DNA of 64,000 bases from Acidimicrobiia bacterium (GCA_044867425.1 JBIOUX010000035.1:11477-75476), one strand, 5' to 3'. Counted from the first letter of the stretch, positions 8,223 to 32,226 are shown. Program-made: numbers and translations. Notes: generated by a model not told the origin, from the letters alone.

Positions 8223-8294
8223 AAAAAATAGGCGCGGCGGGCGCGGGTGTCAATGCCCCGTGCTTCCGGCGGGCAGAGGCGCCACACTGGTGGA

Positions 8295-10244: not shown

Positions 10245-10849
10245 CCTGAGGGCGCCGGAGCCGGGGCCGGCTCCACAGGCGCCGGTGCCGGTGCCGGTTC
10301 AGCGGGTGCGGGTGCGGCGGGCGCGGGCTCGGTGGCTGGCGGCGTCGCGGCCGGTGGCGGCCCTGTCTGGAACTGGACATCGCTCTCGTCAGCCGTCTGC
10401 ACCGCCTGCTGCTCGGCGCCCTGCTTGACGGCAAGCTCCAACTTGACCCGCTTGATCGCCTTCGAGAACCCCGCGACGTCCTCCATCTTCAAGACCGTCA
10501 CGTCCGTGGCGATGACCGCCCCGCCGGACGTGACGTAGACAACGGCCCCCGGGATCACGTCACTGGCCAGCTCGTTCTTGTTCACCGTCTTGGCCACCCT
10601 GGCCGTGTTGGGGGGCTGCTTCACCTCCTTGCCACCTCCGCTGCCGCCGCCCCCGCTTCCTCCCGTGCCGGTGACGAGGACAACCAGGAGGATGACGGCC
10701 AGGATCCCGGCCGCGCCGGAGGAGAGGAAGGCCCAGCGGCGGTACTTGTCCTCGTCGGCACCGACGGCGACTCCGCCCTTGGCGTCCGCCTCCAGCAGGT
10801 CGTTGAGAGTGGTCACCGGGAAGTCGATGGTGTCTTCGAGCGTCGGCAT
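10241..10849 (-). CDS. Single-pass membrane protein, possible RcpC/CpaB-like beta-clip domain, Pro/Ala tail
   Basis: GGGAGG RBS before ATG 10849; TM helix; VIPGAVVYV..DVTVL..LELAV pattern. Confidence 0.55.
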   Translation of the reverse strand: MPTLEDTIDFPVTTLNDLLEADAKGGVAVGADEDKYRRWAFLSSGAAGILAVILLVVLVTGTGGSGGGGSGGGKEVKQPPNTARVAKTVNKNELASDVIPGAVVYVTSGGAVIATDVTVLKMEDVAGFSKAIKRVKLELAVKQGAEQQAVQTADESDVQFQTGPPPAATPPATEPAPAAPAPAEPAPAPAPVEPAPAPAPSG

Positions 10850-11018
10850 GGACGCTGCCTCCCTCGTCCGCCTCTCGGGCATCGGCATCGTACCGGCCCT
10901 CCTGCTCGCGCCACCAGTGAACTTGGTTGACAACGGCGACAACGCTGCGAGACCCTTTTTTGCCACATCAGACGCTTTGTACGGGTGGCATCCGGCCGAA
11001 GAGAGAGAGGAGCGTCCC

Positions 11019-11282
11019 ATGGGTATGCAGGGCGCCGACATCATGCAGATGCAGCAGCTCGAGCAGCGGCTCTCCCAGGAGAGCCAGGCGGTCCGCGAGC
11101 TGATGAGCCGGATCGATCAGGCCCTGTCGAACACCCAGTGGACGGGCCCGGCGGCTGACCGCTTCAAGCAGGAATGGTCGGGCAACTTCGTCAAGGCCCT
11201 GAACACGCTGTCCGAGGCACTGGGCCAGAACGCCTCGGCGGTTCGCAACCGCTGGCAGGCGTTCGAAGCCGCCGCCCGCTGA
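11019..11282 (+). CDS. WXG100/ESAT-6 family type VII secretion substrate (87 aa)
   Basis: Helical 87 aa with central W-T-G (TQWTGPAADRFKQEW); GAGGAG RBS; directly upstream of the FtsK ATPase. Confidence 0.92.
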   Translation: MGMQGADIMQMQQLEQRLSQESQAVRELMSRIDQALSNTQWTGPAADRFKQEWSGNFVKALNTLSEALGQNASAVRNRWQAFEAAAR

Positions 11283-11328: not shown

Positions 11329-14300
11329 ATGCACGTGTCATTCATCGTCGAGGGGGACGAGCGGGAGCTCGACCTCGACGTCGGCCAGGGACAACCGACG
11401 GTTGGCGACCTGTACGCCGCGCTGACGGGACAACCGGAGGCCAGCGGCCTGCTGCTGGACGGGCGGTACTGGCCGCCCGACGCCCCCCTGGCTGAGGTCG
11501 CCCTCCGCCAAGGGTCGGTGCTGGAACCCGCCTCCGGTCCGCCGCCTTCGACGGCCGGTCCCGAACCGGTGGCCGAGCTGTCGGTCACGGGCGGCCTGGG
11601 GTCGGGTGACACCGTGCCCCTGCCTGCCGGGTCCCACAAGGTGGGGCGTGGCCCTGACGCTGACGTCGTGCTCGACCATCCCACGGTGTCGCCCGTCCAC
11701 GCCCGGGTGGAGGTCACCAGCACCGGGGCCGTGGCCGTGGCCGACGCCGGCTCGAAGAACGGCACGGCGCTGGAGGGCTACCGGCTCAAGGAACCGATCC
11801 GGGTCGAGCCGGGCCAGGTGCTCCAGGCCGGGGCCGTCCTCTTCCGGGCGGGCCCGGCGCCGGCCACCGACGCCCCCGTCCTCGGCCGCCCGCGGCGCAG
11901 TGGCACGGCGGCCTTCAACCGGCCGCCGCGAGCCCGGGTGCAGAGCTCGCCGTCGACGCTGCGCACGCCGGCCGCCCCCAAGGAAGGTGGGTCGGCCAGC
12001 AGCTTCGGGGTGGGGGCCATGATCGCCCCCGCCGTCATGGGCGTCGGCTCCGCCATCATGTTCGAAAGGCCCATCATGGCCGCCTTCGCCCTCCTCTCGC
12101 CCATGATGATGTTCACCAACCGCATGGAGGAGAAGCGCCGGGCCGGAAAGGAACGGGCCCGGGGGGACCGCGAGTTCGCCGAGGCGCTGGTGGCGTTCCG
12201 CCGGGCCCTGCTCAAGGGGCGCCAGACCGAGCTGGCCCGCCGCCGCCAGCTGTTCCCCGACCCGGCCGAGGTGCTCCGCCGGGCGGTGACCCCCAGCGTG
12301 CGCCTGTGGGAGCGGCGCCCGGGGCACGAGGACTTCCTCCAGGCGTCGGTGGGCACCGCCACGCTGGCCTGGACCCCACCCCTCGACTCCCCCGGGGGCG
12401 AGCACCCGGTGGAGGTGGAGGAGACCATCTCCTCGCTCGGCTGGCTGCCCAACGCCCCGCTGGCCACCGACCTCGGCCCCGGACACACCCTGGGGGTGGT
12501 CGGCGACCGCACGGCCGCCGTGGCCCTCGCCCGCGGCGTGATCTGCCAGCTGGCCGTCCACCACGGACCGGCCGACCTCCGGGTGGCGGTGCTGACCGAC
12601 CCCGGCCACGCCGCCGACTGGGACTGGGTGAAGTGGCTGCCCCACGTCCGCAGCCTCGACGAAACCTCGGGCCGCCATCTGCTGGCCGCCCGTCCCGAAG
12701 ACGTGGCCGCCGTCCTCGACGAGCTGACCACCGTCCCCGAGACCAAGGGCCCCGGTGTGCGGCCCAACGAGACGCCTGAAGGTCCCATCACCCTGGTGGT
12801 GGTCGACGCCCCGGCGCTGATGGAAGGCCGCAACGCGCCCGCCCGCGATGTGCTCTCGGGCGACGGGGTGCCGGCCTGCGGGCTGGTCCTGGTCCGGTCG
12901 GCCGATCAACTCCCGGCCCTGTCCACCAGCATCGTCGAGCTGTCCGACGGCCTGGGTGGCGCCCGGTACCGGGAGCCGGGCATCAACCTGACCATCGAAG
13001 GCATGCTGGTGGGGGGCATGCCCGAACGCCTGGCCCGGCGGGCGGCCCGGGCCCTGTCCGGCCTGGAGGACCCGGAGGTCCCCGACCTGGGCGCCGACCT
13101 GCCCGACGGCGTCGCCCTCGTCGACCTCGTCGGCGGTGAGGTCAGCCCCGACACGATCTCCCAGCGGTGGAAGTCGGCCGGCCGGGTCCCCCGCATGGTG
13201 GGGCCGATCGGCGTGGCCGGGGACGGGCCCGTCGAGATCGACTGGGTGGCCGACGGACCCCATGCCCTGGTGGCCGGCACCACCGGGTCGGGGAAGTCGG
13301 AGATGCTCCGTTCGGTGGTGGCGGGACTGGCCGCGTCCCTCGACTCCGAGCACCTCAACTTCGTCCTCATCGACTACAAGGGCGGCTCCGCCTTCGCCCA
13401 GTGCGCCGGGCTGCCCCACACCGTCGGCATGGTCACCGACCTCGACGAGCACCTCGGGGCCCGAGCCCTGCGGTCCCTGGAGGCCGAGCTGCGCTACCGG
13501 GAGACCCGCCTGCGCGACGCCGGCGCCTCCGACCTGAAGCAGTACCTCCAGGACGGCCACCCCGAGCCGCTGCCCCGGCTCCTCATCATCATCGACGAGT
13601 TCGCCACCATGGCCGCCGAGCTCCCCGACTTCATCGATGCCCTGGTGGGCATCGCCCAGCGGGGCCGCAGCCTCGGCGTGCACATGATCCTGGCCACCCA
13701 GCGGCCGGGAGGCGCCGTCAACGACAACATCCGGGCCAACACCAACCTGCGGATCAGCCTGCGGGTGCAGGAGGCCGCCGAGTCGTCCGACATCATCGGC
13801 ACGCCCATGGCCGCCCAGATCGGCCGCCGGCAGGCGGGGCGGGGCTACCTGCGCCTGGGCGCCTCCGACGTCTTCCCGTTCCAGGCCGCCCTCGTCACCG
13901 GGGTGACCCGCAAGGAGGAGACCACCTCCGTCGGCGAGTCCCGCTTCGTGTTCGGCCCCGAGCCGCTGGTGCGCGACCAGCTGCCGGAGACCACCAAGAC
14001 CGCCGCTCCCGAGGGACCGTCCGACCTGGAGCGCCTGGTGGCCGCCGCCGCCGAAGCCGCCCGTCTGGGCGGCCTGGCCGAGCCGCGCCGTCCCTGGCCC
14101 GAGGCACTCCCCGCCATGGTGGCGCTGGGCGACCTGGTCGAAGAGGCGGGCGGGGCGAGCGCGGCGGTGGTCGGGGCCGGGGCGCCCTTCGCCCTGGCCG
14201 ACGAGCCGGACCGGCAACGGCGGGCCCTGTTCTCCTGGACACCGACGGCGGGCAACCTCTTCGTGTGCGGCGTGGCCGGTTCGGGGGCCACCACCACCCT

Positions 14301-15627
14301 GGCCACGGTGGCCACCTCCCTGGCCAACACCTACCGGCCCGAGAAGCTGTGGTTCTACGGGCTCGACTTCGGCACGCAGGCGCTGGCGCCCCTGAGCGGA
14401 CTGCCCCACTGCGGCGGCATCGTCGGCCCCAGCGACCGGGAGCGCCAGTTCCGCCTGGTGCGCTACCTGGCCGACGAGCTCGAGCGCCGGCGCCGCCACA
14501 TCGCCGCCAGCGGGGCCACCCGCATCGACCCCGGCGACCCCAACTCGCCGTTCCCCACCATCGTGGTGCTCATCGACAACTACGGAGCGCTGCACTCAGC
14601 GTGGGAGGACACCACGGGCATGGCCATCCGCGACCTGCTGGCCCGCACCATCGCCGACGGGCCCGGGCTGGGCGTGGTGGCGGCCATCGCCGCCGACCGC
14701 CCCCTGTCGCTGCCCGGCAACATCGCCTCGGTGACGCCCAACAAGATCGCCCTGCGCCTGGCCGAGCCGAGCGATCTTTCCTTCTTCGGCCTGAATCCCC
14801 GCGAGGTCGGCAAGCTGGGCGTGGGGCGCGGCATCGACGCCGGCACCAAACTCGAAGTACAGATCGCCGTTCCCCATGCCGACGGGCTGGCGGCGGCCGT
14901 CGCCGAGGCCACCGCGGCGGCGGGAACGGTGGAGGCCGCGGCGCGGCCGCCGGCCATCGGGGCGCTGCCCGACGACGTCCCCGCCAACCTCGTCCAGGAT
15001 GCGCTGCACATCGAAGAGACGGAATGGTTCCTGCCCATGGGCGTCGGCGACCTGACGCTCGGCCCCGCCGGCCTGCGCCTGCTCGAATCCGAGCACGCGT
15101 TCGTGATCGGCCCGCCCCGATCGGGGAAGTCGACCGTGCTGGACGCGGTCGCCGCCATGGTCGGCAAGGCCCGGCCCGATGTTGTCATCACCGTGATCGG
15201 GACCCGGCGCTCACCGCTCCACGACGCCCCCGAGGCCGCCCATGTGGTACGCAGCGCCGAAGAGCTCAAGCCGGCGGTGGCCCGCATCAAGGAGGACACC
15301 GCACCCCAGCTGGTGCTCATCGACGACGCCGACGCCCTGGACGACGACCTCGAAGGCACCCTGGCCGGCCTGGTGGCCACGACGCGCGGCGACCTGCACC
15401 TGGTCGTCGCCGCCCGCCCCGACCCCATCCGGTCGAACTACGGCCACTGGACGGCTCGGGTCCGCACCTCCCGCCAGGGCCTGGCGCTGCGCCCCAACCT
15501 CGACCAGGACGGCAACCTGCTCGGGACGATGTTCCCCCGGGGCGGGCCCACCACTTTCGAGGCCGGCCGGGGCTACCTCGTGGCCGAGGGCGTTTCCCAG
15601 CTCCTCCAAGCCGCCCGACGAGGCTGA
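11329..15627 (+). CDS. Type VII secretion ATPase EssC/EccC-like (ubiquitin-like + FHA + TM + three FtsK domains)
   Basis: FHA (VGRG..VSPVHA..DAGSKNGT), FNRPPR, two TMs, RLWERRP, GTTGSGKSE, IDYKGG, GRSLGVHMILATQRP, GPPRSGKS. Confidence 0.92.
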   Translation: MHVSFIVEGDERELDLDVGQGQPTVGDLYAALTGQPEASGLLLDGRYWPPDAPLAEVALRQGSVLEPASGPPPSTAGPEPVAELSVTGGLGSGDTVPLPAGSHKVGRGPDADVVLDHPTVSPVHARVEVTSTGAVAVADAGSKNGTALEGYRLKEPIRVEPGQVLQAGAVLFRAGPAPATDAPVLGRPRRSGTAAFNRPPRARVQSSPSTLRTPAAPKEGGSASSFGVGAMIAPAVMGVGSAIMFERPIMAAFALLSPMMMFTNRMEEKRRAGKERARGDREFAEALVAFRRALLKGRQTELARRRQLFPDPAEVLRRAVTPSVRLWERRPGHEDFLQASVGTATLAWTPPLDSPGGEHPVEVEETISSLGWLPNAPLATDLGPGHTLGVVGDRTAAVALARGVICQLAVHHGPADLRVAVLTDPGHAADWDWVKWLPHVRSLDETSGRHLLAARPEDVAAVLDELTTVPETKGPGVRPNETPEGPITLVVVDAPALMEGRNAPARDVLSGDGVPACGLVLVRSADQLPALSTSIVELSDGLGGARYREPGINLTIEGMLVGGMPERLARRAARALSGLEDPEVPDLGADLPDGVALVDLVGGEVSPDTISQRWKSAGRVPRMVGPIGVAGDGPVEIDWVADGPHALVAGTTGSGKSEMLRSVVAGLAASLDSEHLNFVLIDYKGGSAFAQCAGLPHTVGMVTDLDEHLGARALRSLEAELRYRETRLRDAGASDLKQYLQDGHPEPLPRLLIIIDEFATMAAELPDFIDALVGIAQRGRSLGVHMILATQRPGGAVNDNIRANTNLRISLRVQEAAESSDIIGTPMAAQIGRRQAGRGYLRLGASDVFPFQAALVTGVTRKEETTSVGESRFVFGPEPLVRDQLPETTKTAAPEGPSDLERLVAAAAEAARLGGLAEPRRPWPEALPAMVALGDLVEEAGGASAAVVGAGAPFALADEPDRQRRALFSWTPTAGNLFVCGVAGSGATTTLATVATSLANTYRPEKLWFYGLDFGTQALAPLSGLPHCGGIVGPSDRERQFRLVRYLADELERRRRHIAASGATRIDPGDPNSPFPTIVVLIDNYGALHSAWEDTTGMAIRDLLARTIADGPGLGVVAAIAADRPLSLPGNIASVTPNKIALRLAEPSDLSFFGLNPREVGKLGVGRGIDAGTKLEVQIAVPHADGLAAAVAEATAAAGTVEAAARPPAIGALPDDVPANLVQDALHIEETEWFLPMGVGDLTLGPAGLRLLESEHAFVIGPPRSGKSTVLDAVAAMVGKARPDVVITVIGTRRSPLHDAPEAAHVVRSAEELKPAVARIKEDTAPQLVLIDDADALDDDLEGTLAGLVATTRGDLHLVVAARPDPIRSNYGHWTARVRTSRQGLALRPNLDQDGNLLGTMFPRGGPTTFEAGRGYLVAEGVSQLLQAARRG

Positions 15628-15641
15628 CCCGGCCGGCTGCC

Positions 15642-18641
15642 ATGGCCACCGCCACCCGTTCGCCGCTGGTCGAGCAGGCGGAGAAGATCGACCGCCTGGC
15701 TCAGCACCTGTCGAACGGCCAGCTCCTGGAGAAGGCGGTGCGGCTGGCCGGGTCCGACAGCGTCTGGAGAGGGGCGCTGCGCGACGGGTTCATGGGCTGG
15801 ATCGCTCATGCCCTCGACTTCTGGATGCGCAACCAGCTCGCCGAGGGCATGCGGCTGGTGGCCCGGTCCCTGTTCAACCGGGCGGCGGACATCGAACGGG
15901 CCCAGCAGGCCATGGCCGCCGGCCAGGTCGGCGTCGTGGGCCCCGGGATACCCGCCCCCCTGAACTACGCCCCGGGGACCCCGCCTTCCTACGGAAGCAT
16001 CGGTGGGCCAGGGGTGGTCCCCGAGATGAATGGTCAGGAGGTGCGGGGCCTCTCCCACCTGCTCTTGGCCACCGCCGACGACGTGTTGAACTTCGGCCGC
16101 ACGGTGGAGGCGGCGCTCGACCCTCCGCCGGCGCCGCCACCGCCTCCCGGTGCGCCGCCAACCGTGAGCCCCGTCCCTCCCGACGCCGACGCGGCCGTCG
16201 GCTTCCCCCACGCGTACCTGGAGATCGCCACCCAGCTCCGCAACGCCGCCAGCGACCTGGCCCGGCGGGCCGACGAGTGGCTCCTCGGCGAGGACGCCAG
16301 CCTCCCCGGTATGGCCTCGGTCGATCTCGGTGTCATGAACGCCGCCGCCCAAGGCGCGGCCGCCGTCGCCACGTCCTCGGGCGCCGCCGCCGATCAGGCC
16401 CAGGCGCCGGGGGTGCCCACCGCCACCCCCGAAGACCAGGTGCCGCAGCCGCCGGTCGAAGAGCAGCAGCGCGACGCCGAAGCGCTGGCCAGGGATTACC
16501 CCCCGGACAAGGTGCTCGACGATCCCCGCGAACTCAAGAAGCTGGCGGCCGAGCTGGACAAGCACCAGGGCCACGAGGCGTTCGCCGCCCGGTTCGTCGA
16601 GAAGTTCGGCGCCAAGAACGTCTTGGCCGTCCCCCGTGCCCTGCAGGCGTGGCAGAACGGGTGGGAGAAGGGCCAGCACACCCTGGGCCCGGGTCAGCGC
16701 AGCCTGCCCTTTGGCAAGCCACAACCGGAAGCCACCAAGGAGGATATCGAAAGCGTCCTCTACGGCTTCTCCGGCACCCTGGCCACCGCCACCCGCTCCG
16801 AACACTTCGATCAGAAAGTCGAGGACCAGATCCTCGCCACCAAGGATCCCCTCGCTCTCTCCTGGCTGCTGAGCGACCACGACGCCCATTTCGACGCCGA
16901 CTTCCTGGTGGAGGCGTTCGAGCACGGCGTCAAGGACGTGATCCTCAAGGAGGCTTCCCTGTCCGGGATCGGCAGCCCCTACGCCACCAGCGAGAGCCCC
17001 CTCGAGCTCCGGACCGGCAAGCTCTACACGGACCCCAAGATCGCCGTCCTCAATGCCATCTCCCGCAACGAGGAAGCGGCGATGAGGATCGCCGACATCG
17101 AGTTCAAGCCTCCGCTCAAGGTGTACTTCGGCCTCCGCCCCGACGTCGAGGTCAAGAACATCGTCGAACTCCTCTACCAGGGTGGTTCAACGGACGGCGG
17201 CTATGGCGACAAGGGCGCCGCCCTCGGTCGCATGCTCGACACGGCCCACCGGGGCTTCTGCGACAACGGCGACGCCGCCAGCGCCAAGAGGGTCGTGGAC
17301 CAGATCACGAAAGGTGCCACCAACGACAAGGACGTCAAGCGAGCTGAGGAGTCGCTGCGCCGAATAGGTGCCCGTCAGCCCGTTACCGACGAAGAGGCGA
17401 GCAACGCGCTCGCCAACGTCCGCAAAGATGACAACCATCCGGCCCGGGAACTCCTTCTGACCCAAGCGGCAGAACGCCATAGCGTGTCAGCCACCTTCGT
17501 CGCCGACGCAGCAAGCGGCAAGAAGTACGCCGGCGAGGTTCTCTACGAAACTCGGAGCGCTTGGGACGTCGTGCGTAAGAGCATGACTGATCCGAACGGT
17601 ACCGCCGAGCAGCGAGCTGACGCCGAGAAAGCCCTCGAACGGACGATCACCAAAGTAGGCAAGGGCGAAGAACTCTCCAACGAAGCCCGCCGAGGCATGG
17701 CCGACAACCTCGCCCTACGCTTCGGGGATCTAGCCTACGTTCTTTTTTCTCCAATTTCTGCGCCTGCGCAAGGGTGGGTGAATGCTTCGAAGGACGACCT
17801 AAAAGCGACTCTTGCCGAAGTGGCTCGCGACAAGGAAGCACGGGAAACTCTGATGCTTGGGATCGGAGCCTGGTCCTCAAAGACATATGACGAAATGGCT
17901 ACGAAACTAGCCGCTGGGAGCTCTGACAACGACGTTCTGAAGAAATTCGCTCCGGAGATGATGCAGATGGGCGACGCATTCTGTCAGATGATAACCGCCG
18001 TACAGGAAGCCGGTGTAAAAGAGCGCGACGAAGCGCTGGCATTACTTCAGCGATATCGCTTCGGAGTCGATATCGTATTTGACCTTGTTGAGCAGATTCC
18101 AGTCGTCACCACAGCCAAAGCTTCCGTCGATAGCGCCTTAGGCCATCTCCCCGGCGGAATCGCACCAGATTACGAGGAGGCGCTTCGGTCCGGCATCGCA
18201 AAGAACCTGTCGGGCGTCGACATGGGCAACGTCATCGCTAGGACGAAGGCGGAAGCTCTCAGTACCGTGAGCCAAGTGGATGTCATCGTTATTGAGAACA
18301 TGATGAGTTCGATGGCTCGAAAACCAACCCTTATGGTCGGCATGGGCCTGAACACATGGGGCAGTTGGCCAGCCTTTATGCTGCGTGAGCCACCACCGCC
18401 GTCCGACGCTTCCGTCGACCCGACCGCACTTGCACAGTTCGTGAAGCCCGAGTATATGGACCCCGCGGGGGGCGTTAGGTTTCCTTTGCCTGGGACCCCG
18501 GATTATGGCGACTTTCAAGAGTGGTATCTCGATCCCTCGCTCGACAACCCTCTTCTAGAACAGGCCAGCTTTATCACTGCTGAAGTCAGGAATAGCATGA
18601 ACACCTGTATGATGAAAATCCAGTGGGAGAAGTCACTGTGA
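15642..18641 (+). CDS. Putative T7SS polymorphic effector (999 aa): WXG-like N-terminus, helical middle, variable C-terminal domain
   Basis: ATG 14 nt after the essC stop; SVWRGALRDGF WXG-like motif; Pro-rich linker; GC content drops after ~17340. Confidence 0.8.
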   Translation: MATATRSPLVEQAEKIDRLAQHLSNGQLLEKAVRLAGSDSVWRGALRDGFMGWIAHALDFWMRNQLAEGMRLVARSLFNRAADIERAQQAMAAGQVGVVGPGIPAPLNYAPGTPPSYGSIGGPGVVPEMNGQEVRGLSHLLLATADDVLNFGRTVEAALDPPPAPPPPPGAPPTVSPVPPDADAAVGFPHAYLEIATQLRNAASDLARRADEWLLGEDASLPGMASVDLGVMNAAAQGAAAVATSSGAAADQAQAPGVPTATPEDQVPQPPVEEQQRDAEALARDYPPDKVLDDPRELKKLAAELDKHQGHEAFAARFVEKFGAKNVLAVPRALQAWQNGWEKGQHTLGPGQRSLPFGKPQPEATKEDIESVLYGFSGTLATATRSEHFDQKVEDQILATKDPLALSWLLSDHDAHFDADFLVEAFEHGVKDVILKEASLSGIGSPYATSESPLELRTGKLYTDPKIAVLNAISRNEEAAMRIADIEFKPPLKVYFGLRPDVEVKNIVELLYQGGSTDGGYGDKGAALGRMLDTAHRGFCDNGDAASAKRVVDQITKGATNDKDVKRAEESLRRIGARQPVTDEEASNALANVRKDDNHPARELLLTQAAERHSVSATFVADAASGKKYAGEVLYETRSAWDVVRKSMTDPNGTAEQRADAEKALERTITKVGKGEELSNEARRGMADNLALRFGDLAYVLFSPISAPAQGWVNASKDDLKATLAEVARDKEARETLMLGIGAWSSKTYDEMATKLAAGSSDNDVLKKFAPEMMQMGDAFCQMITAVQEAGVKERDEALALLQRYRFGVDIVFDLVEQIPVVTTAKASVDSALGHLPGGIAPDYEEALRSGIAKNLSGVDMGNVIARTKAEALSTVSQVDVIVIENMMSSMARKPTLMVGMGLNTWGSWPAFMLREPPPPSDASVDPTALAQFVKPEYMDPAGGVRFPLPGTPDYGDFQEWYLDPSLDNPLLEQASFITAEVRNSMNTCMMKIQWEKSL

Positions 18642-19384
18642 TACTGACTCGCAAGTGCTGTTACGTGGCTGGATCGGGCGCAAAATTTTCCAAAGTTGGC
18701 CTAACTCCACCGTTGCTCGTCGCTTTCGCGATCTTCTTTGCAACGTTCGCTGGGTGCTCTGACTCAGGAAACGCTGATAGCAAGGGAAATGGTAACGACT
18801 CCAGTTCCACTGACGCTTCCGCCATGGCGGAGATCGACCCACCTCTCGATGAGTGGGCCACCTCTGCAACCGCTGAGTACGGCAAGCAAGTAGAAGCGGG
18901 GGGCCAACCTGACTTCAATGCCGTTGCCCGCGCGATCGCGCCTGCCACTCAGGCTCTCACTGCCGCGCTTTGTGAATCGTTCCGCAACGACGATGCCTTC
19001 ACTGACTCCGGGAAGGCATCCGAACTCGAGAAGCAAGTCGCGTTTGCGGCCGACGAAGCCTTAGCGCGCGCCCTGGCACACAAGCCACGGCTGCTTGTCG
19101 CGCTTGGAATGACGACTTGGGGTCAGTGGCCCCCGTTCGCATTGAAGGATCCAGCTCCTGCGCCCGACATGCCCGTAGGAGATCTGTCGCAGGGTCTGTC
19201 ACAGTTCCTCAAGCCAGAGTTTATTGGTGAGGATGGAGGCCTTTCGATACCCAGCAAAGGCGCCCCAGGCTATCAAGAGTTTCAGGCTTGGTTCTATGAC
19301 CCGGCGCTCGACAACCCCTTGTTGGAGCAAACCACGGTCACTACACAGTCGTTCAATGGTTGGACTGATACGTGCTCCAAGTAG
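18638..19384 (+). CDS. Lipoprotein Lip1, putative cognate immunity protein; paralogue of the effector C-terminal domain
   Basis: GTGA overlap with the effector stop; lipobox FAGC; shares TWGxWP, QFxKPE and DPxLDNPLLEQ...TC with the effector tail. Confidence 0.8.
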   Translation: MILTRKCCYVAGSGAKFSKVGLTPPLLVAFAIFFATFAGCSDSGNADSKGNGNDSSSTDASAMAEIDPPLDEWATSATAEYGKQVEAGGQPDFNAVARAIAPATQALTAALCESFRNDDAFTDSGKASELEKQVAFAADEALARALAHKPRLLVALGMTTWGQWPPFALKDPAPAPDMPVGDLSQGLSQFLKPEFIGEDGGLSIPSKGAPGYQEFQAWFYDPALDNPLLEQTTVTTQSFNGWTDTCSK

Positions 19385-19466
19385 CAGCAACTTGATTAGT
19401 GCGAGCCTTGCAGTTCGACTGGGGCTCGAGAAAGGAGATGAGCCAGAAGAATCAATGGTCAGGTGC

Positions 19467-19650
19467 ATGAGGCGCCGGAGGAGAATCGTCCTCTTCAGCT
19501 CGGCCTTTGGAACACTCCTTGCGGCCGCGGCGACCAGCGAAGGAGGCGAAAGCGACAGCGGTGGTGAATCAAGCTCTACGAGAGTACGAGAGCGCGTCAG
19601 CCGCTGAAGCGGAAAAGTACGCCGAGCCCGTTGCGGTCGCCCACCTCCAG
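19467..19650 (+). pseudogene. Truncated remnant of another array lipoprotein
   Basis: MRRRRRIVLFSSAFGTLLAA signal-like start, then in another frame ALREYESASAAEAEKYAEPVAVAH, resembling Lip5 ILAEPLAVSY. Confidence 0.45.
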
Positions 19651-20343
19651 AATCGTGAAACCGCAAGCAAGCCTGCGGACACTAGAAACGCACACGTCCG
19701 CCTGATATACGTTGCCCTTGCGATATTGGGGATCGTGGGCTGCGCGGGAGAAAGCGGCGGCAGTGGTTTCGCCGAGGCGCGGCAGACTTACGAGCAGGAA
19801 GCCTCTGAGCGCGCCGACACTTTGGCTGGTCTGATGGCGGATGCGTACGTCGGACAGGCCTCCTCGGGTGTTCCTAGTCTCAACACCGTGGCCGAGCAGT
19901 TCGAAGGACAAGTCTCAGGCCTCAATGAGTTCCTCTGCGACCGCGTCGAGGTCTTGGCAAAGCAGGCTGGCTCCGGGGACACCAGAGCGAGTCGCCTCGA
20001 CGATGTCCGAGTCGCAACGGAGGAGATTGTGCAGGACGCAGTCGCAGGAGCACTCCTTGAAAAGGCCTTGTCTGCCCCCGCCGAACAGCGGGACCAGCTT
20101 CTCGACGGCCTTGGCGTCGAGGGCTCCGCACCGGATGGCACCGCACTTCGGGGCACGGCTGCTCTCCAAGACGTTGGGCTTCTCGACGGTCAGGGGCGTC
20201 TCAAGATCCCAGAACGAGAGACGGACGCGCATATCCGCTATGAGAGATGGGCATTCGGAGAGGCCCGAAGCTTCGGAGGAAGCGTCAGCAAGCTTATCGC
20301 CGGCACAAGAGCGAAGCTCGAGCAATGCACCTCTTCCGCGTGA
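19507..20343 (+). CDS. Lipoprotein Lip2 (array member, subfamily B); true start uncertain, probably near 19690
   Basis: Lipobox IVGC; LNEFLC, LLDGQGRLKIP, Y-x-x-W and terminal Cys shared with the family. Confidence 0.72.
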   Translation: MEHSLRPRRPAKEAKATAVVNQALREYESASAAEAEKYAEPVAVAHLQNRETASKPADTRNAHVRLIYVALAILGIVGCAGESGGSGFAEARQTYEQEASERADTLAGLMADAYVGQASSGVPSLNTVAEQFEGQVSGLNEFLCDRVEVLAKQAGSGDTRASRLDDVRVATEEIVQDAVAGALLEKALSAPAEQRDQLLDGLGVEGSAPDGTALRGTAALQDVGLLDGQGRLKIPERETDAHIRYERWAFGEARSFGGSVSKLIAGTRAKLEQCTSSA

Positions 20344-20392
20344 TCCGATACAACGGAACTAGAGAACCGGATTGTGGCTAGCTGATAACGAT

Positions 20393-21692
20393 CAGCGTCT
20401 GGAGGGGGGCGCTGCGCGACGGGTTCATGGCCTGGATCGTCCACGCCCTGGATTTCTCGATGCGGAACCAGCTGGCCGAGGGCGTGCGGCTGGTGGCCCG
20501 GTCCCTGTTCAACCGGGCGGCTGACATCGAACGGGCCCAGCAGGCCATGGCCGCCGGCCAGGTCGGCGTGGTGGGCCCCGGGATGCCCGCCCCGCTCAAC
20601 TACACCCCGGGGACACCGCCCCCCTATGGCGACATCGGGGATGGAACGACGGCCCCTCAGTTCGATCCCGAGCAGCTGAGAGGGCTCTCCCACCTGCTGC
20701 ATGCCACTGCTGACGAGGTGTCCAACTTCGCCCGCACCATTGACGCGCCCGCACCATTGACGCGGCACTCGCCCCGCCGCCGCCACCGCCGCCGCCGGGT
20801 GCGCCGCCGGCGGTCAGTCCCGTCCCTCCCGACGCCGAAGCCGCCGTCGGCTTCCCCAGGCGTACTTGGAGATCGCCAACCAGCTCCGCAACGCCGCCAA
20901 CGACCTCGCCAAGCGCGTCGACGCCATGATGCCTACCGGGACGAGCCCCTGGCCTCGACCACCATCGACCTCGGCATCGTCGGCCGGGCTGCCGGCGGCG
21001 GCGCCGCCGCCATCGCCACCGGCGCCGCCGCCGCCGCCGACCAGGTGCCGCAACCTCCGGTCGAAGAGCAGCAACGCGACGCCGAAGCGCTGGCCCGGGA
21101 CTACCCCCCGGACAAGGTGCTGGACGATCCCCGCGAACTCCAGAAACTGGCCACAGAGCTGGAGAAGCACGAAGGCCACGAGGCGTTCGCGGCACGGTTC
21201 GTCGAGAAGTTCGGGGCGACAAATCTGACCGCCGTTCCTCGCACGCTGCAGGCATGGCAGAACGGATGGCAGATCGGCCGGGAGACTTCGACTCCAAACC
21301 AGCGAAACCTGTTCTACGGCAAGCCCCAACGTGAACCCACCAAGCAGGACATCGAAAGTGTCCTCTACGCCTTCTCCGGCACCCTCGCCACGGCCACCCA
21401 TCGCAGCCCCAAGCTCGAGACCGAGTTGGACAAGCTGGCCAACACCAAGGACCCGCTGGCTCTCTCCTGGCTGCTCAGCGACCACAACGCGCACTTCGAC
21501 GCCGATTTCCTCGTGGACGCTTTCGAGCACGGCGTGAAGGACGTGATCCTCAAAGAGGCCAGCGACAACTATCTTGCCTGGTGCGACCAACCATGGAACA
21601 CGATAGCTGAACGTGCACACCGAATGGCTGATAAGGCTACGGCTGAGATGCATCAGTGTATGACTGAGATCGGTTGGATAGAATCCTCGTGA
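20393..21692 (+). pseudogene. Degenerate second effector cassette: copy of effector 15758-16955 fused to a different C-terminal tail
   Basis: High nucleotide identity to the effector starting at the SVWRG codons; no original start; 17-bp tandem duplication at 20731-20764; frameshifts; large internal deletion; tail NYLAWCDQPWN...HQCMTEIGWIESS. Confidence 0.8.
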
Positions 21693-21747
21693 ACGTTCCC
21701 GAGGAGACCAAAATTGTCCAGCGCTTAGGATCACGAACTCGTGAAAC

Positions 21748-22467
21748 ATGGAGGGCGCAGCATTGATATCCGCCATTGGTAAGCCGCATCTTCTGCGAGC
21801 TTCGAGATTGCTCGCTGGAACGCTCGGCGTGGTCGTTCTTGTGGCCTGCTCTAGTGGACCCTCTAAAGGAAGCACAGACCAGGGAGCCCTTGACACTGTC
21901 TTCCAGGAGATTCGACCATCGACGGCGGAGTGGGCAGCAACCCTGGCTGCGGAATTGCAGCGCCGACGCCAAGACGGCGAGATCGACATGGAGGCGATGC
22001 GAGGACTCGCGGGGCGCACTGGAATGCCTCTCTCGGACTCGATCTGCACGACTATCAAGGAAAACGACAGCATCGCCAACTCAGAGGAAGATGCAGAGTC
22101 GGCCAAGGAAGTTCTGCATGACTTTGTCGATCGCGAAGTGATGGTAGCTATAGCCAAGTATCCGGTTCTTCTTTACGACCTCAAGGTCCAGTGGCCGCCC
22201 TCTTGGCTTTTAGATCGGTCCCGTCAGCCCGACTATACGGCGCCGATTGAAGGCATCAACCCGGAATACCTTAAGGCTTCTCTTCGCCCTGAATTCGTCG
22301 CTGGCGATGGCTCGGCAGTCCTGCCTGACCGTGGAAGCAAGGAGTATGAAAACTTTCTCGCCTGGAAGCACCTTGCGAAGAACAATACTTTGGCCGCACG
22401 CGGCTACGCTTTGTCAGGTACGGTCGATGACGCCATCACCGATTGCATTGACCGGCTTTCCGACTAG
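21748..22467 (+). CDS. Lipoprotein Lip3 (array member, subfamily C)
   Basis: Lipobox LVAC; central SIC; KYPVLL, WPPSWL, LRPEFV, YENFLAW, terminal DC. Confidence 0.8.
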   Translation: MEGAALISAIGKPHLLRASRLLAGTLGVVVLVACSSGPSKGSTDQGALDTVFQEIRPSTAEWAATLAAELQRRRQDGEIDMEAMRGLAGRTGMPLSDSICTTIKENDSIANSEEDAESAKEVLHDFVDREVMVAIAKYPVLLYDLKVQWPPSWLLDRSRQPDYTAPIEGINPEYLKASLRPEFVAGDGSAVLPDRGSKEYENFLAWKHLAKNNTLAARGYALSGTVDDAITDCIDRLSD

Positions 22468-22503
22468 AAGGCGAAAGATCGTGCTTGGTGATGAACTTGT
22501 CTG

Positions 22504-23310
22504 TTGCATTTTGGCACAGCGGTGTGTCAGCTAAGCATATTGTGGTTCAAGTCCGTGGGCGCCCGAACGGCATACCAACGTCGGCCTTGCAATATTCGGT
22601 TCCCGGCCTGCACCCTCCGAGTCAACGAGCACGATCGGCCCGTTGGCTTGTTCATCGCCATCGGCATCAGCGCGGCCCTTGCCGCATCCGCGTGCTCCGA
22701 AGGGTCGTCGAAGGAGGAGCGTTACCGAGCCGCCGTGAGCAACGTCTGGGCGTCCATTCGGCCAGCGACCGCTCAATGGGCGGTCAATGTCTCTTCGGAG
22801 ATGAGAGACCAGCTACAGACAGCGGGCGCGCTTGATCTTGTATCGGTGCAAGGCGATGCGGGGCGTAGTGGCGAACCGGTAGCCAACTCGGCCTGCGAAG
22901 CCGTCAAAAAGAACGATGACGTCGCCGCCTTGGATAACCCTACTGAACCGGCCAGAGAACTCAGGATGCTCATCGCCAGGGAGTTCATGCTCGCTATCGG
23001 CAAACAACCCAGCCTCATTTATGACCTCAAATTGACATGGCCGCCTTCCTGGCTACAAGACCCTTCAAGGCAACCAGACACCACTGCTCCCATTCAGGGA
23101 CTCGACCCTCAATGGCTTCGAGGGCTCCTGCGACCGGAATTCGTTGCGGAAGACGGCGGAGTCCGGTTCCCCGAGCCAGGAGATCCGCAGTATAGGAATT
23201 TTCTCGCTTGGGCCGACCAGAGCGACAACGGCTTGGCGGCTAGGGCAGGGTCTCTCACACGGAGCGTCACGGACAAGATCGAGGACTGCATTCGCGAGCT
23301 TCGGGATTAG
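22504..23310 (+). CDS. Lipoprotein Lip4 (array member, subfamily C); start uncertain
   Basis: Lipobox ASAC; WPPSWLQDPSRQPD, LRPEFVAEDGGVRFP, YRNFLAW; close paralogue of Lip3. Confidence 0.78.
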   Translation: MHFGTAVCQLSILWFKSVGARTAYQRRPCNIRFPACTLRVNEHDRPVGLFIAIGISAALAASACSEGSSKEERYRAAVSNVWASIRPATAQWAVNVSSEMRDQLQTAGALDLVSVQGDAGRSGEPVANSACEAVKKNDDVAALDNPTEPARELRMLIAREFMLAIGKQPSLIYDLKLTWPPSWLQDPSRQPDTTAPIQGLDPQWLRGLLRPEFVAEDGGVRFPEPGDPQYRNFLAWADQSDNGLAARAGSLTRSVTDKIEDCIRELRD

Positions 23311-23313
23311 AAG

Positions 23314-24000
23314 TTGTTGACCATCAATCGCGTCATTGCAAAATCCAGATGCGCTGCCGCTTTCGGCTTGGCTGGCTCTCTTTTCGTGTTCTCGGGCTGT
23401 TCGGGAGGAAGCAGCGGCGGGAACTTTGAGGAAAACCTTGCTTCCTATGCGCCGGCGTACAGGCCGGGTAGATATCCTTGCCGAGCCCTTGGCGGTCAGT
23501 TATGTAGGCAAATTAGCGGCAGGCGACACGGACCCCTCACCGGAAGTACTCGAGGAATTTTCGCGATGATCTCTCCGGCCTCGGCGATTTTCTCTGTCAG
23601 CGTCTCCGGGCGCTCCAGGATGCTGCGGGCTCCAGAGAGAGCAAAGAGAAGAACATGCTCGCGGCGGACGAGGTCTCAGAGCGAATCATCAGAGACGGCG
23701 TCATCGCCGCCCTCCTCAACCGCGCCCTCGCCGCCCCACCCGAGCAACGGGACCAACTTCTGGAACTTCTCCACGTTAAGGCCATCGCTCCCGACGGGTC
23801 TGAGTTGAGGGGCACGGCTGCCCTTCAGGACGCAGGTCTCTTCGATGGTCAAGGAAACGTTCGCATTCCGGATCGGTAATACGCCGCAATACACCCAATA
23901 CTTGGATTGGTCTACGGATGAGGCTACGGGCCTCGCAGGTTTCAAACTAGTCAGAGGCGTGAAGTCCAGAATTCAGGAATGTGCCGCTCCAAGACCATAA
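23314..24000 (+). pseudogene. Frameshifted lipoprotein Lip5 (subfamily B)
   Basis: Lipobox FSGC; segments ILAEPLAVSY / LGDFLCQR...APDGSELRGTAALQDAGLFDGQG / YLDWSTDE...RIQEC lie in different frames; homologous to Lip2. Confidence 0.75.
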
Positions 24001-24032: not shown

Positions 24033-25094
24033 TCATCCGCCCTTGGCCGCCAAACCCATCACGTGGACCTTGCGCGGTCCCCACAGGTACAGGTTGCCGT
24101 CGGCGCCCATCGTCATCCGGGCCACCGTCTCGAGCATCCGCTTGGGGGCCTTGATGTCGGAATCCCCCCTCTCGGCGAGGACGACAACCCGTTCGTCGTC
24201 CTGCGAGATGCCATACACCACGCCGGTCTTCGGGTCGACGGCGATCCCCCGCCGTCCGAAACCGCCTTCCACGTCCTCGGGCGTCTCGCCGAGGCGAGCG
24301 GACATCATGCGACCGCTTCCGGCCTCGAGGGGTCGCCCCGAGTAGAGCTGGCCGTCGGCGATCCACAGCTGACCGTCTGAAGAGTCGAAGGCGATCCCGC
24401 CGATCGAGTTGTAGTGGTAGCCAGCCAGTCCGGCGTCCGGATTGTTGGGGGGCTTGGGGTCGCCCTCCTTCCGGGGCCCGCCGGTCACGGTCGTGGCCCG
24501 TCCGAAGCGGTCGATGCGGTCGACCTTGTGGGTGTCGGCCAGGTAGATGTCGTCGGAGCGCTCGTCGATGGCGATGCCGACAAGGACGCGGCTCAATCCC
24601 GGAGGGTTGGAGGAGGCCACGGCAAAGGGGCCGGTGTAGTTGAGGATGAGTCCGCTGGTGTCTTCCCGTATGAATCTGAGGCTCTCCCGGCGGGAGCCAG
24701 TGACGGCCTGGTAGAGCGTCCCGCCGCCGCTCACGGCGAGCGCTGTGGTCGTCCCGCCCTTGTCGACGGTCGGCTTCCCCGACCGGGGCAACGTCACGAG
24801 GCGGCCCTTGTCGAAGTCCTGGAAGAGCTTGCCCCCCTCCAGTTGCTCCTTCTTCGGCGCGATGCCGAGATGGACGGTCCCGTCGGCGGCGACGGCCAAG
24901 GCGCTGACATACTCCCGATCAGGGTCGAAGTCGATCCCGACCTCAGCGGCGTCGAAGAGCTCGATCACCTTCCCGTGCTTGGCCTGCGGGAACCGTTCCG
25001 CCCCAGAGCAGGACGGCACCGCGCCCACCAGGACGGCCAGGATCATCGCCCAGCCTCGGCCGCCCCGCCACGAGGCGCACCCGGAGCGCCTCAC
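24033..25094 (-). CDS. Secreted/lipoprotein NHL-like beta-propeller protein
   Basis: Signal with VPSC; repeats GIAIDE..IYLAD, GIAFDS..LWIAD, GIAVDP. Confidence 0.7.
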   Translation of the reverse strand: MRRSGCASWRGGRGWAMILAVLVGAVPSCSGAERFPQAKHGKVIELFDAAEVGIDFDPDREYVSALAVAADGTVHLGIAPKKEQLEGGKLFQDFDKGRLVTLPRSGKPTVDKGGTTTALAVSGGGTLYQAVTGSRRESLRFIREDTSGLILNYTGPFAVASSNPPGLSRVLVGIAIDERSDDIYLADTHKVDRIDRFGRATTVTGGPRKEGDPKPPNNPDAGLAGYHYNSIGGIAFDSSDGQLWIADGQLYSGRPLEAGSGRMMSARLGETPEDVEGGFGRRGIAVDPKTGVVYGISQDDERVVVLAERGDSDIKAPKRMLETVARMTMGADGNLYLWGPRKVHVMGLAAKGG

Positions 25095-26194
25095 TTGCGG
25101 ACCTTGCCTTTGAGGTCAGTCCGGATCTCGGAGATGACCTCGCCACCGGCCTCCATGTAGGAGCCGAACCCGAAGATGGCGTACAGGTTGCCTTTCGAGT
25201 CGAAGGTGAAGCGCTCGTCGAGGTCGTCCGAACCGGAGAGGAACAGGAGATCTCCCTTGCGGTCGAGGCGGGCGACGCCCTCGTCGGAGGCGGCGTTGAT
25301 CACCGAGAAGTACAACTTCTTCCGCTTGACATCGAACCGGACTCCCCCGGTGAAGCTGACCTCCGGGAACAACAGAAAATGGGCCATTCCGGAGCTATCG
25401 ATGCGGATGAGCTCGCTGCCGCCGCCGATGTAGAGGTCACCCATGTCCGGGTCGTAGGCGATCCCCTCCACGCCGTCGTACCCGTCGAAGCGCAAATCCT
25501 TGGCCGGCACCGGCTGCGCGGCGGCGACCGCGTCTTTGGGGCTGACACCGGGCGAGGTGCGCTCCTCCCCGCGGGCGCCGCTGATCGTCGACATCCGGCC
25601 GTCCGTTTCGAAACGGTCCACCTTGTGTCCGTCGCTCAGAAAGAGCGCTCCAGTCCCCGGATCGACCGCCATCCGAACGACCTCGTCGAGGCCGGGGTCG
25701 GTCACGGCGGTTCCGGGGATGGGCGCGTAGGACCCCAGCCGCCGGACGCGCCCGTCGGATGACCGAAGCGAGACAGTGGAGTTCCGGTCGGCGAGATAGA
25801 TCTCTCCTTCGGGCCCCAGGGCGATCGCCGTGAGTCCGGCGTCCGCATCCGAATTTGAAGGCAGGAGCTTCTGGACCTGGCCGGCGGTGGACACTGACAC
25901 GAGCGCTCCGCTCTTGAGGACTGCGTAGATGGTCTCCCCCGGCCCGACGGCGAAATCCTCGATGCTGGCGCCGAGCTCGTACCGATCCGTCACCTGAACG
26001 GTCTCCCCGGGGACGGGCGACGGACGGGAGGAGGAGGAGGAGTCGCCGCCGCGCACCATGATCAGCACCCCGGCGGCGAGCATGACGGCCACGACGGCGG
26101 CTGCGGTGCCGATCACGAGCCGGGAGCGACGGAACCTGCCCTGCCGCCCTGCCGGCGCCGTCTCAAGGGGAGCCTGCGGTTCCTCGACATTCAT
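25091..26194 (-). CDS. Membrane-anchored NHL-like beta-propeller protein
   Basis: GGAGG upstream of ATG 26194; TM helix; AIALGPEGEIYLAD, GIAYDP repeats; shares HKVDR motif with the downstream gene. Confidence 0.7.
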   Translation of the reverse strand: MNVEEPQAPLETAPAGRQGRFRRSRLVIGTAAAVVAVMLAAGVLIMVRGGDSSSSSRPSPVPGETVQVTDRYELGASIEDFAVGPGETIYAVLKSGALVSVSTAGQVQKLLPSNSDADAGLTAIALGPEGEIYLADRNSTVSLRSSDGRVRRLGSYAPIPGTAVTDPGLDEVVRMAVDPGTGALFLSDGHKVDRFETDGRMSTISGARGEERTSPGVSPKDAVAAAQPVPAKDLRFDGYDGVEGIAYDPDMGDLYIGGGSELIRIDSSGMAHFLLFPEVSFTGGVRFDVKRKKLYFSVINAASDEGVARLDRKGDLLFLSGSDDLDERFTFDSKGNLYAIFGFGSYMEAGGEVISEIRTDLKGKVRK

Positions 26195-26358
26195 GGCGAC
26201 CCTCGTGGTCCTCCGGTGTGGCGCGCGAAATCGTGCCATCAATCCCCCGAACGCGCTCACGAATTTCAACTCCAGAGCCTGCGTCGACGCCGGCTGACGG
26301 ATACAGGCAACCGCCCTATCGAAGAGTGTGCATTCACCCAGTGAAGCCACCAATGAAA

Positions 26359-32094: not shown

Positions 32095-32226
32095 GTCCTC
32101 CCCCTCTCGCCGTCTGTGGCCCGAGTCTACGATGACGACGGTCGTCCTCGCCGGGGAATAAGCCGAACTCGACGGCACGCCGGCGGTCGCTACCCTGGAG
32201 GTGACGCCTCGGAGGAGGTTCGGAGC

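Follow-up and report, generated by a model that had tools for sequence, protein, structure and literature searches.

A putative type VII secretion substrate of an uncultured Acidimicrobiia bacterium shares its C-terminal domain with lipoproteins encoded downstream

Results

Genes of the locus

We analyzed a 64,000-nucleotide (nt) stretch of DNA, here called the window (GCA_044867425.1, JBIOUX010000035.1:11477-75476), from a draft metagenome-assembled genome (MAG) of a soil actinobacterium, an Acidimicrobiia bacterium (227 contigs, 93% complete). On the plus strand of the window lie, in order, a gene for an FHA-domain, EssC/EccC-like ATPase; Eff1, encoding a putative substrate of a type VII secretion system (T7SS); the lipoprotein genes Lip1 and Lip2; Eff2, a decayed second effector gene; the lipoprotein genes Lip3 and Lip4; and Lip5, which is broken (Table 1). 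An initial annotation had proposed that each effector tail is matched to look-alike lipoproteins encoded just downstream. The peptides that it quoted are all in the sequence where it had placed them: Eff1 carries ...DFQEWYLDPSLDNPLLEQ...MNTCMMKIQWEKSL at its C-terminus, the open reading frame (ORF) at 20427-21692, which ends Eff2, closes with DNYLAWCDQPWNTIAERAHRMADKATAEMHQCMTEIGWIESS, and Lip3 and Lip4 carry ENFLAWKHLAKNNTLAARG and RNFLAWADQSDNGLAARA.

Table 1. Features of the locus, in window coordinates (GC3, G+C content at third codon positions; aa, amino acids)
Feature	Position	Strand	Description	Basis
Eff1	15642..18641	+	999-aa putative T7SS substrate; WxG motif (W42-R-G), proline-rich linker, long helical body	Full-length relatives P0002, P0003 and G007
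Eff1 C-terminal domain	18240..18638	+	aa 867-999; common to the lipoproteins	Own-genome search
Lip1	18623..19384	+	Start overlaps end of Eff1; same subtype as Eff1 tail	Lipobox ...ATFAGC
Lip2	19507..20343	+	Deeply separate (Lip2-type) clade; true start uncertain	Lipobox IVGC, Cys at nt 19741
Eff2 remnant	20393..21559	+	Copy of Eff1 residues 40-439, without start or first helix; frameshifted in proline-rich part	blastn, tblastn
Eff2 tail	21564..21692	+	Last 42 aa (coding nt 21564-21689) of a different effector C-terminal subtype; in-frame fusion after internal deletion	Tail comparison
Lip3	21748..22467	+	Intact; Lip3/4 subtype	Lipobox LVAC; 59/117 identical to Lip4
Lip4	22504..23310	+	Intact; lipoprotein nearest to Eff2-type tail	Lipobox ASAC
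Lip5	23314..~24000	+	Broken Lip2-type gene across three frames	Lip2 aa 129-237 at 49.5%, E 3.5e-27; DNA identity to Lip2 68% across 122 nt
Compositional island	17300..24000	+	C-terminal third of Eff1 and all lipoprotein genes	GC3
Secretion ATPase	11329..15627	+	EssC/EccC-like FtsK/SpoIIIE ATPase with FHA domain, 1432 aa	Pfam FtsK_SpoIIIE 1.1e-52, FHA 3.9e-14
Upstream ORF	10578..11282	+	Final ~80 aa resemble WXG100 small T7SS substrates	NCBIfam TIGR03930 WXG100_ESAT6 E 7.4e-6, 26.1 bits (below cut-off of 44.85); weak Pfam PPE E 4e-4

Effector tails and lipoproteins share a domain

When the last 133 aa of Eff1 were searched against their own genome, the matches were Lip1 (E = 9.6e-29, 41% identity), Lip4 (E = 1.5e-12) and Lip3 (E = 1.3e-3), with no other match below E = 0.5. 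Aligned with hhalign, a profile of 44 lipoproteins and a profile of 7 effectors matched over 115 columns (lipoprotein residues 90-209, effector residues 874-994) with 99.5% probability and E = 6.6e-23. Judged from these alignments, the effector C-termini and the downstream lipoproteins have one domain in common, the C-terminal half of the lipoprotein corresponding to the last ~120 residues of the effector. We rejected homology between the N-terminal half of the lipoproteins and the effectors: there were a few BLAST matches, but the profile alignment covers just the last ~115 columns.

Among 1.84 billion representative proteins, the domain profile had 70 matches at E ≤ 1e-3, 41 of them at ≤ 1e-10. 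Most of the matched proteins were 210 to 260 aa long; several were 800 to 1011 aa and had the domain at the extreme C-terminus. A scan of 77 sequences for lipoboxes, made with a rule of our own script and not a trained predictor, so that acylation is predicted, gave 41 lipoproteins and 10 long effectors, and 7 more fragments were judged from their upstream sequence to be pieces of effectors. The domain is mostly helical and has two cysteines, which are conserved in effectors and lipoproteins; its invariant positions comprise just G, P, W and C. The family is sparse. A profile search across the order found it in 2 of 264 genomes, and a sample of 401 genomes from the class contained it once, in the genome of the window. 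Two scans of metagenome contigs found no relatives, and in a scan of genome contigs the genome G007 was the sole relative among the matches listed. Word-based searches for homologues returned 3 and 6 proteins.

Lip1, Lip2, Lip3 and Lip4 each have a signal peptide and a lipobox cysteine (FAGC, IVGC, LVAC and ASAC), and none of the four matched a Pfam or NCBIfam family. The model of mature Lip1 (pLDDT 91.6, pTM 0.86) is all-helical with a long ordered loop; fold searches with it returned generic helical chains only (best Foldseek E = 1.3, best VIA wide Z = 7.5). Lip1 is 68% identical to P0008, labeled Acidimicrobiia bacterium at NCBI. Lip2 is 87% identical to P0021, and the effector tail nearest to it is that of P0046, at 57%. 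The Lip2 lipobox cysteine is 78 codons past the sole upstream ATG, GTG or TTG with enough space for a signal peptide, and P0021 starts ~27 residues before its cysteine; Lip2 may have a non-standard start or a long N-terminal extension. In Lip5, a lipobox piece (FSGC) and a C-terminal piece are in frames other than that of the main match.

The tail of a decayed second effector matches Lip4

The initial annotation had described the second effector as degenerate, and we found it so. Homology to Eff1 starts exactly at nt 20393, with a stop codon just before the position of Eff1 residue 40; from there the remnant matches nt 15758-16954 with 77.1% DNA identity over 1213 nt (blastn) and with 263 of 417 residues identical, frame changes included (tblastn). 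At least two frame changes are in the proline-rich part, and an internal deletion takes residue 439 directly to the last 42 residues. The frame changes sit in a C/G-rich, proline-coding stretch (nt 20740-20990), yet a 421-codon frame runs open through them.

The constant parts of Eff1 and Eff2 are 77% identical in DNA, and the tails are identical at 11 of 42 residues. The best matches of the Eff2 tail are the effector tails of P0031 and P0050 (22/41 each) and P0041 (19/41), with the unclassed fragment P0034 at 18/42. The tail closes with an effector-specific extension, C-M-x-x-x-G-W-I..., that is absent from the lipoproteins. The full-length representative of its subtype is P0031 (904 aa), which is just 37% identical overall to Eff1. 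We take Eff2 to be a displaced, decaying older module, which is the behavior of a polymorphic effector.

Aligned with the lipoproteins, the Eff2 tail was identical to Lip4 at 13 of 38 positions, to Lip3 at 10 of 38 and to Lip1 at 7 of 34; the corresponding values for the Eff1 tail were 17 of 36 with Lip1 (range, 16-17 of 35-36) and 9 of 38 with Lip4. Local alignments of the 42-aa Eff2 tail were then scored against 1000 shuffles of that tail. The alignment with Lip4 scored 70 (z = 13.6; 13/35 identical), which no shuffle equaled. With Lip3, z was 4.8 (0/1000 shuffles as high), and with Eff1 it was 5.8 (1/1000), while the values for Lip1 (z = −0.1, 524/1000) and Lip2 (z = 0.6, 290/1000) were both at chance. 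Thus, the Eff2 tail is related to Lip4, Lip3 and the Eff1 tail, and has no detectable kinship to Lip1. The proposals that this tail is homologous to that of Eff1, and that it is nearer to Lip4 and Lip3 than to Lip1, therefore hold, with Lip4 a clear match and the adjacent Lip3 a much weaker one.

Among the 73 family members compared, Lip4 was the top lipoprotein for the Eff2 tail. When P0031 was used to stand in for Eff2, Lip4 ranked first of 44 lipoproteins (40/122 identical) and Lip3 ranked 14th. In two comparisons the Eff1 domain was identical to Lip1 at 45 of 118 (38%) and 49 of 124 positions, and Lip1 ranked second to fourth of 43 to 44 lipoproteins; Lip2 ranked 37th of 44. By these comparisons, in both window cassettes (an effector tail and the lipoprotein genes after it) one lipoprotein has the domain subtype of the effector tail.

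Effectors and lipoproteins are interleaved in a joint tree

A tree was built from 127 columns of 61 domains: 38 lipoproteins, 15 effector tails, 5 lipoprotein-like sequences truncated at the N-terminus, and 3 unclassed sequences. Sixteen sequences were left out, namely 3 spurious repeat matches, the 42-aa Eff2 tail, and 12 fragments that did not reach 95 of the 129 positions of the profile. Three effector tails fell inside the Lip2-type clade (18 rows, support 100/100), P0046 with Lip2 and P0021 (90/85) and P0047 and P0056 with P0045 (97/77). The other 12 effector tails were in a clade of 29 rows (97/99) together with the Lip3/4-type lipoproteins. There, the Eff2-type tails (P0031, P0050) were sister to a clade of 15 Lip3/4-type lipoproteins (98/87; support of that clade, 99/95). 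The Lip1-type lipoproteins fell outside the 29-row clade. The tree requires 6 changes of the effector label, of which strongly supported branches force at least 4, and in none of 200 bootstrap trees did the effectors form one group. A tree with the 15 effector tails and the 38 lipoproteins forced apart was rejected (cost of 126.6 log-likelihood units; approximately unbiased test, p = 1.3e-6).

This interleaving means that the similarity stems from descent within subtypes and not from two lineages co-evolving in parallel. Of the proposed co-evolving specificity, the shared domain stands, and the tree replaces the parallel lineages with shared descent or domain exchange. Close pairs of effectors and lipoproteins also came from different samples: P0056 and P0045 are 65% identical, P0046 and Lip2 57%, and P0006 and P0009 56%.

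Within the window, blastn detected no DNA similarity between effectors and lipoproteins, and in the best-shared motifs third codon positions agreed at 6 of 18 sites (Eff2 and Lip4) and 7 of 20 sites (Eff1 and Lip1). We therefore excluded recent gene conversion as the source of the matching. Because third positions are scrambled while the protein motifs are kept, the shared residues would be held by protein-level selection in both genes. The matching looks like old common descent, the domains having moved several times between lipoprotein genes and the 3′ ends of effector genes.

The layout recurs in other cassettes

Seven cassettes could be compared: the two in the window, G007:C2, G000:C192, G007:C7, G001 and G003. 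They come from four related genomes and are not independent. The last two rest on unpublished genomes (G001 and G003), and their publication needs the permission of the depositors. In the four cassettes added to the main family (C192, G007:C7, G001 and G003), the effector-like genes have a common N-terminal part and different C-termini. In all seven cassettes, which span four apparently unrelated C-terminal families, a lipoprotein gene that follows the effector-like gene is homologous to the C-terminus of this same effector, and in six (Eff1/Lip1, G007:C2, G007:C7, C192, G001 and G003) the lipoprotein start overlaps the effector stop; in the window the Lip1 start at 18623 precedes the Eff1 stop at 18641.

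The cassette G000:C192 is in the same genome as the window and unlinked to it. Its two lipoproteins are 37% and 36% identical to the last ~200 aa of its effector (tblastn E = 1.3e-28 and 4.2e-23; blastp E = 4.3e-30 and 5.1e-24). At this locus (G000:C192:18890-23636), the effector-like N-terminus is 51% identical to P0056, no ATPase gene lies alongside, and the two lipoprotein genes have overlapping starts. In G007:C7, the single lipoprotein has 45% identity across 89 aa (tblastn E = 8e-21, blastp E = 2.4e-22); G001 has one (E = 3e-6) and G003 has two (E = 4.7e-14 and 7.3e-8). Tandem lipoproteins that look alike are Lip3/Lip4, C192 a/b and G003 a/b.

When 7 effector tails and 11 lipoproteins were compared all against all with BLAST, the lipoprotein of the same cassette was the best lipoprotein match for 5 of the 7 effectors; the misses were G007:C2 and G001 (a near tie). 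Of the 5040 permutations of the cassette labels, 8 reached 5 matches, a fraction that overstates the independence of the cassettes because they come from four related genomes. There was no significant BLAST match across the four tail families (best E = 0.049). We rejected a single superfamily for all four: in the one pair profiled, hhalign gave 0.8% probability for the main family against the G001/G003 family, and a likeness in G-x-L-x-x-P ... F-x-x-W is an impression only.

The cassettes have a lower GC3

In Eff1, GC3 is 0.85 to 1.0 at aa 1-550 and 0.47 to 0.72 past aa ~680. It is 0.62 to 0.67 in Lip1-Lip4 and 0.52 in the Eff2 tail, compared with 0.82 in the constant part of Eff2, 0.93 in the ATPase gene, and 0.84 to 0.88 in flanking genes. 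GC3 drops likewise in the C192 cassette, from 0.85 to 0.69, 0.67 and 0.70. The low GC3 of the C-terminal third of Eff1 and of the lipoprotein genes indicates a cassette of foreign composition attached to a native 5′ part. This cassette, lower in GC3 than its surroundings, is exchangeable.

Eff1 is modular

Eff1 had no Pfam or NCBIfam family match, and WXG100 and LXG models had no match at E ≤ 1 in 7 relatives of Eff1. W42 is invariant in the 7 effector relatives, and a W-x-G can be read in Eff1, P0002, P0003, P0026, P0056 and P0061. With this motif in an N-terminal helical hairpin and the neighboring ATPase gene, Eff1 likely fits a WXG-type T7SS substrate, and its export is predicted. DUF6571, an actinobacterial Pfam family of unknown function, matched the helical body weakly in 2 of the 7 relatives (best E = 1.5e-7); Eff1 itself had no match, and Eff2 scored 12.6 bits, under the 27-bit gathering cut-off.

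Eff1 and P0061 are 60 to 85% identical over the first ~200 aa, 50 to 78% near aa 360-600, and 20 to 35% beyond aa ~680; with P0002, the trend is reversed. From such comparisons we conclude that the effector is made of a conserved N-terminal (presumptive secretion) part and an exchangeable C-terminal module. The model of Eff1 aa 700-999 (pLDDT 85.9) had no convincing fold match in the PDB (best Foldseek E = 0.1). Alpha-pore-forming toxins (SmhB, AhlC and ClyA) were among the weak rows returned (E = 0.3 to 0.95, TM = 0.16 to 0.21), which we do not count as evidence. A search of the PDB with a profile of the effector had no match below E = 0.09, and the best score in a protein atlas look-up, 0.85, was under the useful range.

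The secretion ATPase and flanking genes

The ATPase has the domains expected of EssC/EccC, an FHA domain and FtsK/SpoIIIE repeats, and by tblastn its gene is the sole one of its kind in the genome. It matched the NCBIfam models for EssC (E = 7e-153), EccCa (6e-118) and EccCb (6e-87), with every score under the equivalog cut-off (TIGR03928, 510.9 versus 778.4; EccCa, 395.4 versus 509.15). Eff1 starts 15 nt downstream of the ATPase gene, and G007 has the same synteny. Upstream of the ATPase gene, as is the ORF at 10578-11282, there is a 665-aa ORF with DUF11 (8247-10241). In G007, size-matched ORFs are in the same order ahead of the ATPase and effector genes (L015 2534-4564, 5687-9982), a synteny judged by ORF sizes only.

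Right after the cassettes are three genes with signal- or lipoprotein-like N-termini, at 24033-26353 (minus strand) and 26542-28020 (plus strand), with one weak NHL-repeat match among them; in G001, two ORFs that look similar to these come after the lipoprotein gene. Farther on, two convergent ORFs (28899-29957, plus strand, and 29944-33045, minus strand) have a long similar stretch in common that includes H-E-L-V-H-T-L-G-G, read by eye as a zinc-protease-like HExxH motif. The first had no Pfam match; the second, larger one also has a long, repeat-like C-terminal region.

Discussion

A tentative case for protective partners

The explanation we favor, at a probability of roughly 45%, is that the locus holds exchangeable cassettes, each an effector tail with its lipoproteins, of a polymorphic T7SS substrate, and that the lipoproteins are cognate protective partners. 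Eff1 would be exported by the type VII system, and the lipoproteins, as cognate partners situated on the membrane's outer side, would meet an exported or incoming effector tail, most likely in a protective, immunity-like role. Neutralization might come from like-with-like association of two copies of one fold, for example by capping or poisoning the self-association of the tail, and a mechanism of this kind would force the lipoprotein into the subtype of the tail. Tails and lipoproteins of one subtype would descend from one ancestor, and the exchange events would be old. An operon with a secretion ATPase, a foreign exchangeable cassette, extra partners, and intact Lip3 and Lip4 by a dead effector together give the layout of polymorphic effector-immunity loci. 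The pattern of decay is also immunity-like, Eff2 and Lip5 being broken and Lip3 and Lip4 intact; orphan immunity genes are kept likewise in known polymorphic toxin loci.

Several points weigh against protection by cognate partners. Lip3, which directly follows the Eff2 tail, ranks just 14th of 44; each of the two window cassettes has a non-matching Lip2-type gene; and the sole lipoprotein of G007:C2 is of the non-matching Lip2 type (14/107 identical, rank 42 of 44). The G001 effector is slightly nearer to a G003 lipoprotein (E = 4.4e-6) than to its own (1.4e-5). Lipoproteins from other samples resemble Eff1 (P0009, 41%; P0010, 39%) as much as Lip1 does (38%), so that fine, allele-level specificity is not visible and the match is one of subtype. 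What survives of the proposal that each effector is matched to its own downstream lipoprotein is the subtype (Lip4 first and Lip1 second of 44), and not Lip3, the Lip2-type genes or G007:C2. The evidence base is seven non-independent cassettes from four genomes. Since the genome is a draft MAG, errors of assembly could account for the frameshifts seen in Eff2 and Lip5. An enzymatic toxin is unlikely, as G, P, W and C alone are invariant; "toxin" is a label that we would be assuming, and binding, toxicity and protection are hypothetical roles. No known toxin family or fold was matched in Pfam, in NCBIfam or in fold searches with Lip1 and Eff1 aa 700-999. A predicted complex of Lip1 (mature residues 20-209) and Eff1 aa 740-999 scored 0.00 twice, in runs without controls, and speaks neither for nor against binding.

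Other readings of the pairing

The same tail and lipoprotein could instead be a recognition or docking pair, a polymorphic ligand and receptor of one fold that anchors the exported protein or tells kin from non-kin. Matching of subtypes and polymorphism are expected equally under this reading and under protection, and a domain that conserves only G, P, W and two Cys, without any polar or catalytic residue, suits docking, as does the Lip1 model, a compact helical bundle without an enzyme-like fold match. Both partners would be extracytoplasmic, given the lipoboxes and the cysteine pair conserved in both. However, protection better explains why Lip3 and Lip4 stay intact next to a dead effector, an anchor does not need several lipoproteins per cassette, non-matching ones included, and the binding is itself predicted; we regard docking as unlikely.

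There may also be no functional pairing. The proteins would then be paralogues of a fast-evolving envelope domain, and neighbors would be alike because new copies form nearby by partial duplication and are carried along on a single mobile cassette. Shared descent is what the interleaved tree depicts, the cassettes have a foreign composition and move as a whole, the match is at the level of subtype with one cassette lacking a matching lipoprotein, and the tandem look-alikes suggest local duplication. Set against this, the arrangement of a tail homologous to a lipoprotein with an overlapping start recurs in four C-terminal families without significant BLAST matches to one another, and such repeated independent origin argues for selection on the layout; shared motifs were also kept in protein while synonymous sites were scrambled. 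Mere co-travel thus seems to us a rather poor prospect.

It is improbable that the lipoprotein genes are a donor library, raw material from which recombination with the effector 3′ end makes new tails: tails do nest in lipoprotein clades (P0046 with Lip2/P0021, P0047/P0056 with P0045) at 57 to 65% identity and effector modules are mosaic, but no tail in the window resembles a lipoprotein gene in DNA, the extension that closes the Eff2 tail is one the lipoproteins do not have, and intact signal peptides and lipoboxes mark the lipoproteins as expressed products, not silent cassettes.

A wider claim can be added to that of protective partners: specificity by self-likeness, in which the tail would be a copy of a surface lipoprotein fold and sequence similarity would be the pairing code, as the general rule of a new actinobacterial effector-immunity or self-recognition cassette. 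The arrangement would then have arisen, or been kept, in at least four C-terminal families that lack significant sequence matches among themselves. We consider this wider claim possible, if doubtful.

Comparison with known systems

To our knowledge, in the known polymorphic effector systems the immunity or partner protein has no sequence relationship to the toxin domain that it neutralizes. Here, in every cassette examined and across four tail families, the partner is homologous to the effector's own tail, and the domain has been exchanged repeatedly. Judged from literature searches, a pairing between an exported protein and surface lipoproteins that look like it seems to be undescribed so far; these searches gave no relevant report on DUF6571, on type VII secretion in Acidimicrobiia, or on toxin-like immunity proteins.

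Allele-matched self-recognition pairs that are encoded side by side include IdsD/IdsE of Proteus, TgrB1/TgrC1 of Dictyostelium and TraA of Myxococcus. They would resemble the present locus in having polymorphic, adjacent components with allele-paired specificity, one secreted and one in the envelope, and the Tgr partners are paralogues; the protein families are unrelated to ours, and the likeness is one of analogy only. TraA is treated in PMC5562445.

Nearer in layout are the polymorphic T7SS toxins of Firmicutes (EsaD/EsaG, TspA/TsaI and TelC/TipC; PMC9484751, PMC7456083 and PMC6193138). As far as the available parts of those reports go, their loci are like this one in the FHA-bearing EssC-type ATPase, the conserved N-terminus, the exchangeable C-terminal module, the partner directly downstream, the extra partner copies, the decayed second module and the foreign composition. 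Unlike them, Eff1 has no LXG or WXG100 model match, its candidate partners are lipoproteins homologous to its tail, there is no catalytic signature, and the host is an uncultured actinobacterium.

The polymorphic toxins in general (CDI, for contact-dependent inhibition, Rhs, MafB and others) surveyed by Zhang et al. (2012, PMC3482391) are alike in their C-terminal modules swapped by recombination and their adjacent cognate immunity genes. Displaced orphan modules in those systems, in the portion of the survey available to us, retain a piece of the constant region, to which Eff2 with Lip3, Lip4 and the broken Lip5 would correspond. In that portion, Imm65 is the only lipoprotein among the immunity proteins surveyed, and neither "homologous to the toxin" nor "related to the toxin" occurs as a phrase; at the present locus, the candidate partners are lipoproteins without exception, and all are homologous to the tail.

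Even without a functional pairing, the locus clearly exemplifies the exchange of cassettes in an unannotated family of T7SS substrates. If the pairing is functional, it offers a simple, testable code, in which same subtype binds same subtype, and a single duplication would yield both effector and partner, which would explain the joint birth of new pairs. The type VII system of uncultured soil actinobacteria would then join the few systems that have paralogous recognition partners.

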